A DNA stretch of 64,000 bases, from NCBI GenBank assembly GCA_043814015.1, contig JBDRKM010000157.1:7010-71009 (forward strand), written 5' to 3'. A program made the translations under genes and the position numbers. The notes under the pieces were generated by a model. That model was not told the DNA's origin and searched no databases. It worked only from the letters and a program-made list of their open reading frames with translations. This DNA is from Pseudomonadota bacterium (GTDB taxonomy: Bacteria > Myxococcota_A > UBA796 > JAFGLY01). Positions 27,273 to 33,220 of this stretch are shown here, one piece after another; the first letter of the stretch is position 1; each line of letters opens with the position of its first letter.

Positions 27273-27875
27273 TCACTCGTCCACGGGTACGGGCACCGGT
27301 GCTGCGGGCTCCACCGGCCGCTCCTCCACCACGGCGCGGGCGGCCAGCCAGGCGGCGGTGCCCTCGCCGGGGTGCACGTACCAGGTGGCCCAGGCGCCCG
27401 TGGGGGTGCGGATCTGGACCACGCAGGCGCGCTCCACCGGGAGGCGATCCTCGGCCATGCGGCCGTCCACCACGAGGTGGCCGGGCAGGCGGGCTTCGGG
27501 GCCGGGGCCGGCGCCCACGGCCTCCCGGTACAGGCGCTCCAGGCGGTCGCCCTCCTCGGACCAGCCTGCGGGGAGCATGAAGCCCGGCGAGACGGCGCGC
27601 AGGCCGCGGAAGCCGGCGCGCAGGGCGTCCTCGTCGCCGTCCAGCCAGGCCCGCGCGGTGTAGACCAGGTGCACGCGCTCCAGCGGCTCGCCCTTGAGCA
27701 CGTCGGACAGGTGATCCAGGTCGCGCTCCATCCCGGCCTGCGCCTGGGCGAAGGCCAGGTAGCGGTGCTCCTGGAAGGCGGTGAGGGCTTCGTCCAGGTG
27801 GCGGTTCAGCTCGTCCTGGTAGGCGGGGTAGTCGCCGGCCAGGGCCGCGGTGAGCACGAGCAGCGGGATCAGCAT
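27273..27875 (-). CDS. Hypothetical secreted protein
   Basis: Signal MLIPLLVLTAALA; overlaps the upstream gene. Confidence 0.7.
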   Translation of the reverse strand: MLIPLLVLTAALAGDYPAYQDELNRHLDEALTAFQEHRYLAFAQAQAGMERDLDHLSDVLKGEPLERVHLVYTARAWLDGDEDALRAGFRGLRAVSPGFMLPAGWSEEGDRLERLYREAVGAGPGPEARLPGHLVVDGRMAEDRLPVERACVVQIRTPTGAWATWYVHPGEGTAAWLAARAVVEERPVEPAAPVPVPVDE

Positions 27876-29089
27876 CGGGGAGCTCCTCGAAGGCCACGGG
27901 CGAGGCGCCGGCGCCAGCCCAGCAGGCCGGCCAGGGCCAGCAAGCCGGCCTCGGCCACGCCGGGCAGGCCGCGGGGTCCCGCGCAGCCGAAGCAGGAACC
28001 GGCGCCGCGCACGGCGAGGTTGCGGTCGCAGGCGTCGCCCAGGCCGTCGCCGTCGTGATCGGCCTGCTCCGGGTCCCAGGTGGTGGGGCAGACGTCACAG
28101 GCGTCGCCGAAGCCGTCCTCATCGCCGTCGCGCTGGTCTGGGTCGGAGACGTCCGGGCATGTGTCACATGCGTCACCCAGGCCGTCGGCATCGCGGTCGC
28201 CCTGGCCCGGGTCCCAGCGGTGGGGGCAGGCATCGCAGGCGTCACCGACGCCATCGCCGTCATCGTCGAGATCTTCGTCCTCGGGCACGGTCGGGCAGAG
28301 GTCGCAGCCGCCGGTGCGGCCGTCGCCGTCGATGTCGCGCTGGGTCAGGTCCCAGTCGTCGGGGCAGGCATCGCAGGCATCGCCGAAGCCATCGGTGTCG
28401 GCGTCGGCCTGCTCCGGATCGAAGACCTCCGGGCAGACATCGCAGGCATCGCCCAGGCCGTCGGCGTCGCGGTCGAGCTGGTCCTCGTCGGGGTCTGACG
28501 GGCAGATGTCGCAGGCGGTGCCGACATCGTCGAGGTCGGGGTCGGCCTGGTCGGGGTTGTGCTCGTCGATGCAGTTGTCGCAGGCGTCGCCCACCCCGTC
28601 CGCGTCCGTGTCGATCTGGGACGGGTCGTAGTTCCAGGGGCAGACGTCGCAGGCGGAGCCCAGCCCGTCCACGTCGGGATCGGCCTGGTCGGAGTTGCCC
28701 ACTTCCACGCAGTTGTCGCAGGCGTCCCCCACGCCGTCGCCGTCCGTCTCGGCCTGATCCGGGTTGGGCGCCTCGGGGCAGTTGTCGCAGTCGAGCGTCA
28801 CGACGCGGGCCACGGTGTCGTCCGGGTAGCGGATGGTCAGATCGCCCGAGGCCAGGCCGTCCTCGTCCTCGTCGATGTCGTAGTCGGGCAAGAACCAGGT
28901 GCAGCCGAAGGAGGCGTAGTCGTAGTAGTAGTCGGCGCTGGCGTAGGGATCGCCGTCCGCGTCGGTGTGGGAGGCGCAGATGGCGTTGCCGAGGTCCACG
29001 GTGGGCTCGTCGGCCGCGTCGATGCCGTTGCAGTTGAGGTCCTGGAGGTCGGCCAGGGCCAGGGGCAGCAGGGCCAGCAGAAGGATCAT
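27869..29089 (-). CDS. Thrombospondin type-3 repeat protein with MYXO-CTERM-like tail
   Basis: Signal peptide; many DxDxDGxGDACDxCP repeats; tail RGAGSCFGCAG...LLALAGLLGWRRR. Confidence 0.9.
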   Translation of the reverse strand: MILLLALLPLALADLQDLNCNGIDAADEPTVDLGNAICASHTDADGDPYASADYYYDYASFGCTWFLPDYDIDEDEDGLASGDLTIRYPDDTVARVVTLDCDNCPEAPNPDQAETDGDGVGDACDNCVEVGNSDQADPDVDGLGSACDVCPWNYDPSQIDTDADGVGDACDNCIDEHNPDQADPDLDDVGTACDICPSDPDEDQLDRDADGLGDACDVCPEVFDPEQADADTDGFGDACDACPDDWDLTQRDIDGDGRTGGCDLCPTVPEDEDLDDDGDGVGDACDACPHRWDPGQGDRDADGLGDACDTCPDVSDPDQRDGDEDGFGDACDVCPTTWDPEQADHDGDGLGDACDRNLAVRGAGSCFGCAGPRGLPGVAEAGLLALAGLLGWRRRLARGLRGAPRC

Positions 29090-31823: not shown

Positions 31824-33220
31824 GGGGCCTCCTCGGGCGCGATGTCGGCCCAGGGGACCAGCGCCGGGGGCAGCTCGGGCAGGGGGTCCAGTGGATCGAG
31901 CTGCTCGGCGATGAGGAAGAGCACGCGCCGGGACAGCGCCAGGCTGGCCTCGTCCGTGCCTGGAATGACCGGCACGGTCTCGCCCATGCCGCGGGTGGAG
32001 AGGCGCAGGGGGTGGACCCCGGCCTCCACCAGGGCCTGCACGATGGCGTGGGCGCGGCGGTTGGACAGGGCGTAGTTGTAGGCGTCCTCGCCCTCGACGG
32101 AGGCGTGGCCCTCCACCACGACCTGCAGGATCCAGGGGCTCTCGGCCAGGATGTCGGCCACGGCGAGCAGGGTCGGGCGGGACTCGGGGCGGATCTCTTC
32201 GGTGTCGTAGAAGAACTGGATGGGTTCGCGGATCTCGATGCGCGCGCGGTGCACGCGGGCGAGCTGGCCCTCCTCCCAGGTGGGCGGGGGCGGCTCGGGC
32301 TCCTCCGAGATCTCGATGGGGGGTGCCTCGAGCCAGGGCACCCTGGGCGAGGCCAGGCGCCGGGGGCTGCCCAGGTCGCGCCAGGCCAGGCTGACGGCGC
32401 CCCAGCCGCGGAACTCGCTGGTGCCGTAGCCGTCGGCCAGGCCCTTGCCGACGCCCAGCTCGATGGTGGCGAAGCGCCTGGGGTGCAGGCGGGAGCCCAC
32501 CAGAAGCTCGGAGGAGAGGGTGGCGCGCGGAGTGGGCACCAGCGGCCAGCGGTTCAGCACGGCGGCGGACAGATCGTACAGGCCGGGCCACGGGGAGACG
32601 CGCAGCCCGAGCCCCAGGGTGGCCTCGTTGCCCAGCTCGAAGTCGGCGTCCGTCTCGCGCAGGCGGCGCAGGCAGACCCCGAGATCGGCGTGCAGGCCGA
32701 TGCCATCGCCCTCCACGGCGGGCAGCAGCCCCAGGGCCAGGCGCGGGGCGCCCTCGCCCAGCCAGGCGTCACGGCGGCCGAGCGGCAGCAGGGCGTCGGC
32801 GCGCAGCGCGGCCTGGCCGGCGCCCTTCTGGGCGATGGTCCAGCGGGCGCCGAGGGAGGGATCCGCCAGGCCGGGGCCGTCGGCGGCCAGGGCGGGCTCC
32901 TCGCTGGCCCACTGCCATGCCACCGGCAGGCTCCCGCGCAGGGTGAGGTGGCGGGAGAGGTCGTAGGCCGCGGCGACCTGCAGGGTGTGGCGCTGGGCGA
33001 TGACCGCGCCGGTCTCGTCGCCCTCCACCATCAGCACCAGCGGATCACGGAGGTACTGGGCGAGAAACCCCATGGTCAGGGTCCCGGGCGCGGCGCCCGC
33101 GTGGTCCAGGCCGGCCAGGACCCCTGGGCCGAGCCAGGCGCGCTGCAGCTCCACGTCCACCGAGGCGCCCTCCGCGCGCGCGGCCGCGGACAGGGCGAGC
33201 CCCAGCAGCAGGGCGATCAT
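31820..33220 (-). CDS. Outer-membrane beta-barrel + OmpA-like domain protein (TraB-like, no TSP3 linker)
   Basis: Signal; QYLRDPLV, GKGLADGYGTSEFR; IQFFYD...VEGHAS...YNYALSNRRA...GMGE...SRRVLF. Confidence 0.85.
   Translation of the reverse strand: MIALLLGLALSAAARAEGASVDVELQRAWLGPGVLAGLDHAGAAPGTLTMGFLAQYLRDPLVLMVEGDETGAVIAQRHTLQVAAAYDLSRHLTLRGSLPVAWQWASEEPALAADGPGLADPSLGARWTIAQKGAGQAALRADALLPLGRRDAWLGEGAPRLALGLLPAVEGDGIGLHADLGVCLRRLRETDADFELGNEATLGLGLRVSPWPGLYDLSAAVLNRWPLVPTPRATLSSELLVGSRLHPRRFATIELGVGKGLADGYGTSEFRGWGAVSLAWRDLGSPRRLASPRVPWLEAPPIEISEEPEPPPPTWEEGQLARVHRARIEIREPIQFFYDTEEIRPESRPTLLAVADILAESPWILQVVVEGHASVEGEDAYNYALSNRRAHAIVQALVEAGVHPLRLSTRGMGETVPVIPGTDEASLALSRRVLFLIAEQLDPLDPLPELPPALVPWADIAPEEAP

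Follow-up and report, generated by a model that had tools for sequence, protein, structure and literature searches.

Overlapping gene pairs for a TraB-family barrel-OmpA protein and a TSP3-repeat partner: candidate two-part cell-surface modules of an uncultured myxobacterial order

What kind of apparatus is encoded by two pairs of barrel and repeat proteins set in tandem with overlapping codons is the question raised by four genes in a 64,000-nucleotide stretch of myxobacterial DNA. This stretch, here called the window, comprises positions 7,010 to 71,009 of contig JBDRKM010000157.1 in assembly GCA_043814015.1 (G000:C157:7010-71009), which amounts to 9.35 Mb in 507 contigs, is 92.9% complete, and has a G+C content of about 73%. 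On the minus strand the four genes follow one another in the order OmpA1, TSP3a, OmpA2, and TSP3b (Table 1), i.e., twice a barrel-OmpA gene and then a gene for a partner protein with TSP3 repeats, and stop and start codons overlap at every junction (ATGA, GTGCTGA, and ATGA), as an earlier reading made without database searches had stated. That sequence-only reading took the locus for a rearranged and duplicated TraAB-like system and for an undescribed two-receptor apparatus of adhesion or kin recognition. Among the bacterial systems by which cells recognize one another and share membrane, TraA/TraB is the best studied, and, to our knowledge, only one pair of the TraA/TraB type and one fused relative have been discussed in print. 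We lean, with some reserve, toward seeing in each pair of the window a two-part cell-surface module composed of an anchor barrel and a sorted TSP3 adhesin.

In the barrel proteins, Pfam finds an OmpA domain alone, in the C-terminal part (PF00691, cut-off 27.2 bits, with scores of 56.6 and 50.7 bits, and present in 33 of 33 family members), and TSP_3 alone in the partner proteins; between barrel and OmpA domain no TSP3 was detected by Pfam in either OmpA1 or OmpA2, the linker there being Pro-rich instead. The placement of TSP3 in the sorted partner rather than in the barrel protein, which had been proposed from the letters, is thus borne out. A comparison of the barrels with TraB, which had been suggested as a check, was made by hhalign: 23 barrels of the family against 7 TraB-like barrels gave a probability of 99.85% (E = 7e-31 over 282 columns), as opposed to 0.5% for a reversed and 0.3% for a column-shuffled control. 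The TraB-like set was gathered from other genomes of the phylum, and its two members nearest to the TraB model NF033763 (L031 at 612 bits and L032 at 550 bits, each preceded by a Cys-rich protein with a MYXO-CTERM-like tail) gave 98.1% and E = 1e-13 when used alone, while the single sequences of OmpA1 and OmpA2 reached 98.7% and 98.3%. NF033763 itself scores 98.1 bits on OmpA1 and 48 bits on OmpA2 against a cut-off of 700, the matched region being the OmpA part, and a sequence search of the PDB with the barrels returned nothing. A maximum-likelihood tree built from 30 barrels sets those 23 that adjoin N-module genes (the N-module is described below) apart from the 7 TraB-like ones with a support of 100/99. 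Judged by these alignments, the window barrels are members of the TraB barrel superfamily, but they are not TraB.

A further trait sets the family apart, namely an extension beyond the OmpA domain in which all 33 barrel proteins have an invariant Pro-Trp (P456 and W457; consensus VPWxG) and, after it, a tail that is acidic and rich in Pro; the TraB-like sequences inspected have no such extension. We had also entertained the idea that TSP3 migrated from the barrel protein to the partner as an evolutionary event, which was dropped because barrel-OmpA proteins with and without TSP3 are both common in Myxococcota, and the tree merely separates the two groups.

The ESM Atlas model of OmpA1 (predicted local distance difference test (pLDDT) 0.68) resembles Myxococcota clusters with OmpA, TSP_3, and PF13557 in various mixes at template-modeling (TM) scores of 0.87-0.92, and clusters whose aligned part is PF13557 at 0.88-0.89. 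This bears on another explanation of the locus, i.e., that the barrel-OmpA protein is a general envelope protein or a channel of the PF13557 type, that the TSP3 protein acts independently of it as a calcium-binding protein, secreted or of the matrix, and that the two are merely co-expressed neighbors without direct contact. We regard this as unlikely. PF13557 is matched by 2 of 33 family members, which speaks for it, as do large clusters of the barrel-OmpA fold in Myxococcota and Bdellovibrionota for which no TSP3 partner is noted; the window barrels do not match PF13557 even at E 10, and a paralogue on contig C119 of the same genome reaches 19.6 bits against a cut-off of 22. What argues against it is the conservation of the pairing, to which we return after describing the partner.

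The mature N-terminus of the TSP3 proteins is formed by a cysteine-containing region of about 89 residues, the N-module, with the consensus xC..xLxQDLNCNxIDVxDExxVDLxDPxCA..VD..GxPYxNADYYYDYxSFGC..PV...DxDGDGLSxG. The shared N-terminal motif noticed at the outset is real: in 38 family members the columns D, N-C-N, E, C, D, C, and D-x-D-x-D are invariant. The N-module has no family match in Pfam or NCBIfam; PDB sequences yielded two chance-level rows alone (E 1.2 and 1.5), and the N-module of TSP3b has no credible neighbor in the ESM Atlas, where the best feature score of 0.82 and the best TM score of 0.40 are leads at most. By these searches it is a new domain without known relatives. A word-indexed homologue search with the TSP3a N-module returned no protein, its own query included, an outcome that reflects the index; an exhaustive profile search of 1.84 billion representative proteins retrieved 230 clusters at E <= 1e-3, 167 of them at E <= 1e-10, and 15 of the 230 matches, picked for odd length or an internal position of the module, were scanned for domains. 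TSP_3 was present in 13 of the 15, with the N-module preceding the repeats; P0022 has one TSP3 unit after each of two N-modules (as read by eye), and P0064 carries TIG and PKD domains instead of TSP3. Some N-module proteins have, ahead of the module, a region of about 250 amino acids without known family or FG-GAP and MopE repeats. The stalk that follows the module in the window proteins consists of about 11 repeats of 23 residues each (CDNCPxxxNPxQxDxDxDGxGDx). A minimal member of 194 amino acids, with just one or two TSP3 units between N-module and tail, was seen directly after a barrel-OmpA gene in another order of the class (G212, L079:6950-7534); since it keeps the adjacency to the barrel, the long stalk is dispensable for pairing.

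The N-module also serves to trace the system through genomes. A profile built from five N-module sequences and run at E <= 1e-5 over 401 genomes of the phylum, including the window's own, matched 58 genomes, i.e., 57 of the 400 others. By group, matches were found in 51 of 59 genomes of the window's order, in 6 of 18 from other orders of its class, and in 0 of 323 from other classes of the phylum. In the genome itself, tblastn together with a motif scan finds six N-module genes, of which the window and contig C397 have two each and C462 and C119 one each, and all six directly follow a paralogous barrel-OmpA gene; the genes of C397 come in the order barrel, partner, choice-of-anchor D gene, barrel, partner. 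A chance arrangement is excluded because the pair recurs four more times in the genome and in the 57 others. The second C397 partner gene (~15144-16330; L021:8144-9330) has a frameshift between its NCN and DP.C motifs and is either a pseudogene or an assembly error.

Within the window, identity is 32.6% between OmpA1 and OmpA2, over the whole length of both (E 2e-50), and 46.8% between TSP3a and TSP3b (E 1e-118). In the barrel tree, OmpA2 forms one clade, here called type 2 (support 100/99), with the C462 barrel, the second barrel of C397, and the OmpA2 orthologue of G327 (a genome of the same family but of another genus), and a type 2 pair was seen in the window's own family alone. From these comparisons, the second window pair is a diverged, family-specific duplicate. 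In most relatives there is just one pair, or several TSP3 genes come after one barrel, so that the two-receptor apparatus of the sequence-only reading appears doubtful.

To count how often barrel and partner genes stand together, we used a pattern scan of species-representative genomes, which gave 72 N-module loci, all in metagenome-assembled genomes, and took the 30 best of the 72 with 1.5 kb on either side, of which 29 are foreign after removal of the own-genome locus. A barrel-OmpA gene of the family lies directly upstream on the same strand in 26 of the 30 and in 25 of the 29 foreign loci, and the synteny of the pair thus held up. Of the remaining four, two have another N-module gene upstream and two have nothing; on a wider reading one of these exceptions, L075, proved to have three TSP3 genes behind one barrel. 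In wider regions the barrel is directly upstream in 17 of 20 (12 of the 20 being the same places as in the narrow set). L074 has two pairs in tandem, L083 has its barrel 3.7 kb away, and L076 is a contig of 5.9 kb without a barrel. With start codons assigned by script, 10 of 15 foreign pairs overlap by 4 nt.

The two parts are joined in P0038, a protein of 885 amino acids that in one frame runs from the N-module and the TSP3 repeats through an internal tag (Cys/hydrophobic/RRRRR) to a second signal peptide and then to barrel and OmpA domain. This fusion speaks against neighbors without contact, and the same explanation has against it that the adjacency with overlapping codons is kept across the order and into other orders of the class and that the barrels beside N-module genes form one clade apart from the TraB-like set. 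The distances among barrels and among N-modules also co-vary, if modestly (Mantel r 0.32, with 4 of 2000 permutations as high), a weak indication given that kin share history. On the other side, the TSP3 gene stands alone at some loci, and the prediction of a complex between OmpA1 (residues 18-300) and TSP3a (19-369) gave scores of 0.41, 0.39, and 0.41, the best of 3 controls being 0.00, for which the verdict of the tool is "weak support". The runs agreed in at least 75% of contacts, and the pLDDT of the partner was at least 77. In calibration, 116 of 157 solved complexes and 2 of 215 mismatched pairs came up to the mark, counts that apply here only approximately because own alignments went into the prediction; at 0.60 or below, just 18 of the 157 solved complexes did so, as did both passing mismatches. 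A different internal-tag fusion, not to a barrel, was seen in G387 (L074:7183-9285), where the partner continues past its tag (…GGRRR) into a lipoprotein-like signal (LLAGC) and about 250 amino acids of MopE-type Cys-rich repeats.

The C-terminal tails of both window partners, read directly, comprise a Gly-rich motif with a Cys, a hydrophobic stretch, and an Arg cluster, in agreement with the tail of Cys, transmembrane stretch, and Arg described earlier for both. In the family the consensus is LRGGGxRC, then about 15-20 hydrophobic residues, then RRR, and across 37 members G362 and C369 do not vary and R393 hardly does; in TSP3b the Arg cluster is followed by 11 more residues. Testing the tails against MYXO-CTERM models (TIGR03901, cut-off 20 bits; TIGR03382, cut-off 15.85 bits) succeeded at the level of the family, where, as isolated 45-residue tails, 14 of 37 members reach the cut-off of one model or the other and 27 of 37 are listed at E <= 1, and did not for the window's own two tails. 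The C462 type 2 tail passes TIGR03382 at 19.5 bits. The genome encodes a myxosortase core (NF040914, 115.9 bits against a cut-off of 100, contig C388), and a scan of it gave 43 MYXO-CTERM matches at 20 bits or more, with none of the six partner tails among them. The tails are thus probably diverged MYXO-CTERM signals, a view taken from the family as a whole, as the two window tails fail alone.

In the module that we favor, the barrel protein would reside in the outer membrane, with its OmpA domain bound to peptidoglycan in the periplasm, and the partner would be exported by its signal peptide. Cleavage of the Cys/hydrophobic/Arg tail by the genome's myxosortase would leave the partner attached to the surface, as shown for MYXO-CTERM proteins of Myxococcus xanthus, and there it would form a calcium-loaded stalk of about 11 TSP3 repeats with the disulfide-bonded N-module at its far end. 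Its membrane-near end would dock on the barrel. With the partner docked on a barrel bound to peptidoglycan, a pull on the surface protein would pass to the cell wall, and the likely role would be calcium-dependent adhesion or cohesion to other cells, matrix, or prey. In favor of this module are the adjacency of barrel and partner genes, their overlapping codons, the fused P0038, the homology of the barrel to that of TraB, the analogy with TraAB, the myxosortase taken with the tails of the family, the likeness of the partners to MtsC, and, weakly, the predicted complex.

Several observations weigh against this module. The TSP3 repeats of TraB sit between barrel and OmpA domain and so are probably periplasmic, such that TSP3 repeats alone are no argument for a location at the surface. 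The tail of TSP3a falls just short of the cut-offs, at 18.1-19.3 bits for TIGR03901 (18.3, and 19.3 as a 29-mer) and 12.6-14.6 for TIGR03382, and no MYXO-CTERM model matches the tails of TSP3b, its G327 orthologue, and both L062 proteins, all of type 2. Neither model lists 10 of the 37 family tails, and in a scan of whole proteins TIGR03901 is listed for 3 of 37 alone. Loci with one barrel and then three partner genes (L075, L084) do not fit a simple 1:1 pair, and in a single genus L046 and L052 both lack a barrel within 1.5 kb; a wider reading of one of the two, as L073, shows no barrel for about 7 kb upstream. The tool itself states that a complex verdict of the kind given above errs more often than not unless the complex was likely beforehand. 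Lastly, the related records seen are all metagenome-assembled genomes, with no cultured host.

The shortfall of the window tails would also suit a periplasmic tether, in which an uncleaved TSP3 protein is held in the inner membrane by its C-terminal helix and its calcium-binding repeats span the periplasm to the OmpA domain or the Pro-Trp tail, stapling inner membrane, wall, and outer membrane together. The TSP3 repeats of TraB and other OmpA-family proteins do lie on the periplasmic side, between barrel and OmpA (excerpts of PMC12045341 and PMC6372800), and the family-specific extension with its Pro-Trp, invariant in 33 of 33, would be periplasmic as well. We nevertheless hold a tether to be quite improbable, as a plain membrane anchor needs no invariant Cys in a Gly-rich motif before the helix, which is the hallmark of a myxosortase substrate, and the 14 tails that pass a MYXO-CTERM model speak against it too. 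A stalk of about 11 repeats with a disulfide-bonded cap, moreover, resembles surface adhesins such as MtsC, and the second signal peptide of P0038, which comes right after the tag, makes sense only with cleavage and therefore counts against an uncleaved protein.

Kin recognition was the other proposal made for the locus. On this reading, the two pairs would be a two-receptor apparatus for kin recognition or outer-membrane exchange, in which the N-modules would be homotypic heads like the variable domain of TraA and two pairs would mean two specificities. The kinship of the barrels to the TraB family is in its favor, as is the coupling of a sorted partner gene to a barrel gene, as in the overlapping traAB operon (PMC6372800, in excerpt), and the six paralogous pairs, with N-modules just 35-41% identical to that of TSP3a, could give orthogonal specificities. 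In addition, when the 3 best candidates of each genome were scored, 0 of 59 genomes from the window's order had a TraB-model match at E <= 1e-90, which makes a substitute system conceivable.

The partner proteins themselves differ from TraA in head and stalk. By Pfam, which finds TSP_3 as their sole family, they have no PA14-like variable domain, and they have no Cys-rich repeat stalk, the stalk being made of TSP3 repeats. The N-module is detectable across the order at E 1e-17 to 1e-43, whereas the variable domains of TraA are highly divergent according to the portion of PMC6372800 available to us. The same genome, furthermore, carries a more TraAB-like pair on contig C273 (1484-3874, L024), namely a Cys-rich protein of 150 amino acids with a near-threshold MYXO-CTERM (18.9 bits as a protein and 22.1 bits in the genome scan), followed by a barrel, TSP3, and OmpA protein of 644 amino acids, whose TraB-model score is 238 bits. 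The two make up a minimal pair in the gene order of TraAB, and, taken with the N-module pairs, it means that the genome holds both architectures. The restriction of the type 2 pair to the window's family is a further point against two receptors.

Polymorphism of the N-terminal part between strains, which had been suggested as a check, gave the same answer. The stretch is contained in eight DNA runs, which come from three studies of biofilm and aquifer metagenomes, and the 12 runs listed include none of RNA; the X1 contigs are identical to the window, and X2-X4 represent a strain about 2% apart. Differences amounted to 10/546 in the N-module of TSP3b and to 13/601 and 5/394 in that of TSP3a, as compared to 13/727, 14/629, 30/1404, and 16/819 in repeats and barrels and 39/1372 in the 440-amino-acid gene upstream. 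The N-module pieces differ no more than their flanks and therefore show no excess polymorphism, in a limited test of one strain lineage from two further studies; the many joints and loose ends among the reads sit in the TSP3 repeats and come from repeats of other organisms at 85% likeness. On these sequence comparisons kin recognition is not supported, and we consider the two-receptor apparatus improbable.

A further reading, to which we assign an equally low probability, has the pairs as orthogonal TraAB-like contact or fusion devices, in which a given barrel would take no TSP3 partner but its own and a given N-module would bind only N-modules of the same kind on a neighboring cell. If it were true, a cell with six pairs would run several independent channels of adhesion or outer-membrane exchange, and this would amount to a combinatorial surface code in an uncultured myxobacterial order without a close TraB-model match in the genomes searched.

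The four genes do not stand alone. Overlap coupling extends beyond them, with ATGA upstream and ATGCTGA downstream (Table 1), and the whole operon, from the choice-of-anchor D gene through the 440-amino-acid gene, the type 1 pair, and the type 2 pair to the 200-amino-acid gene, recurs in G327 (L066). By this synteny the four-gene locus sits within a longer operon that is conserved in a sister genus.

Table 1. Positions in the window of the four genes and their neighbors (aa, amino acids; ORF, open reading frame)
Feature	Position	Strand	Length	Description
Choice-of-anchor D Ig-like secreted protein	34473-36107	minus	544 aa ORF	first operon gene; Pfam HYDIN/VesB-like Ig 1.9e-12; NCBIfam choice_anch_D 62 bits vs cut-off 45
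440-aa ORF	33217-34539	minus	440 aa	C-terminal hydrophobic region; no Pfam/NCBIfam family; stop overlaps OmpA1 start (ATGA); true start probably further downstream
OmpA1	31820-33220	minus	466 aa	signal peptide, TraB-family barrel (~32351-33169), Pro-rich linker, OmpA peptidoglycan-binding domain (31955-32215), C-terminal extension with invariant Pro-Trp motif (31820-31960)
TSP3a	30636-31823	minus	395 aa	signal peptide, N-module (31521-31772), ~11 TSP3 repeats, Cys/hydrophobic/Arg tail (30639-30773)
OmpA2	29086-30642	minus	518 aa	GTG start; type 2 paralogue, barrel (~29773-30591), OmpA domain (29377-29625), Pro-Trp extension (29086-29380) with longer acidic C-terminal tail
TSP3b	27869-29089	minus	406 aa	signal peptide, N-module (28793-29065), ~11 TSP3 repeats, divergent tail (27872-28006)
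200-aa secreted protein	27273-27875	minus	200 aa	start overlaps TSP3b stop (ATGCTGA); G327 orthologue in equal place (5e-76)
CotH-family protein	26070-27266	minus		Pfam CotH 3e-32; 6 nt downstream of 200-aa ORF

The choice-of-anchor D gene holds an equal position in the orthologous G327 operon, and a paralogue lies between the two C397 pairs. The 440-amino-acid gene is kept upstream of the barrel in G327 and weakly so in L067 and L069, and the C-terminal 56 amino acids of its product resemble the gene upstream of a C397 barrel (E 2e-5). Paralogues of the 200-amino-acid protein occur elsewhere in the genome. The CotH gene may belong to the same transcript as the operon; no CotH match was found beside the orthologous operon L066. 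Further along, a 248-amino-acid ORF (25342-26088) ends the same string of genes, and about 200 nt downstream of it lies a radical SAM/SPASM peptide maturase (23989-25137, minus strand), with the PapB family as its best match (178 bits against a cut-off of 340). Choice-of-anchor D genes with Ig domains of the HYDIN/ASH type recur by the pairs, not only in the window but also on C397 (12101-13627) and at L066, L068, L070, L073, and L085, and a Myxococcota cluster of the ESM Atlas (1011 amino acids) joins Ig domains of the choice-of-anchor D type and the same barrel fold in one protein. Choice-of-anchor D proteins may be further clients of the barrel.

The remaining question is how far the locus departs from systems already described. 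A search of the literature, with most subscription journals outside its reach, found no paper on this pair or on the N-module, and "undescribed" may stand for these two. It does not stand for the general design, i.e., a sorted adhesin beside or fused to a barrel-OmpA protein, which is already published for TraAB and MXAN_5598 (PMC11980579, in excerpt).

In M. xanthus, TraA has a PA14-like variable domain, Cys-rich repeats, and MYXO-CTERM, TraB has a barrel, TSP3 repeats, and OmpA, and the two genes overlap (excerpts of PMC6372800). According to the portion seen of a preprint (PMC12045341), TraB anchors TraA to peptidoglycan, the stoichiometry is 1:1, an AlphaFold model places the membrane-near head of TraA atop the TraB barrel, and TraB without its OmpA domain keeps adhesion while exchange is abolished. 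The window pairs share with TraA/TraB a surface protein predicted to be sorted, a homologous barrel with OmpA, overlapping genes, and a host myxosortase, so that the likeness to TraAB, rearranged and duplicated, holds as one of design. They differ in having the barrel gene first, in the Pro-rich linker that takes the place of TSP3 in the barrel protein, and in the partner, which consists of an 89-residue N-module and about 11 TSP3 repeats, has a head without sign of polymorphism, and comes in several copies per genome.

MXAN_5598, also from M. xanthus, has an adhesin, an internal MYXO-CTERM, a barrel, and OmpA in one ORF (excerpts of PMC11980579). As far as its published description allows comparison, the same two parts are joined there through a sorting tag, and P0038 shares its exact layout; the window encodes the parts in separate genes, whose order is reversed. 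MtsC (MXAN_1334), a MYXO-CTERM protein tied to social motility and cell-cell cohesion (PMC12475490 and PMC11980579, both in excerpt), is like the window partners in its length of about 400-430 amino acids, in consisting mostly of TSP3 repeats, and in its MYXO-CTERM-type tail, and its model NF047638 is their best NCBIfam match. The window proteins differ in scoring 176.1 and 168.9 bits against a cut-off of 350, with the match lying in the repeats. Orthology to the mts locus was considered and rejected, as the true MtsC loci L019 and L020 (541 and 532 bits) have no match to barrel-OmpA or N-module within about 8 kb on either side. With barrels of PF13557 (Phenol_MetA_deg) fused to OmpA, the family appears to share fold and architecture; it differs in that its sequence matches PF13557 only marginally and in having its own invariant C-terminal Pro-Trp.

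The locus suggests a modular and reused design, in which a tag-sorted surface protein would be seated on a wall-holding barrel of the TraB type, and this design, with a different stalk and head, has spread through a whole uncultured order in up to six copies per genome. If docking is real, the pairs would be compact natural test cases for barrel-partner recognition and for the transfer of adhesion force to peptidoglycan, with a partner of about 400 amino acids as against at least 684 for TraA. Measured by gene content and domains against the known systems, the locus is a conserved, clade-restricted variant of the design that joins an adhesin to a TraB-like anchor; its head domain is new, its TSP3 stalk belongs to the sorted partner, its gene order is reversed, and it comes in several copies per genome.

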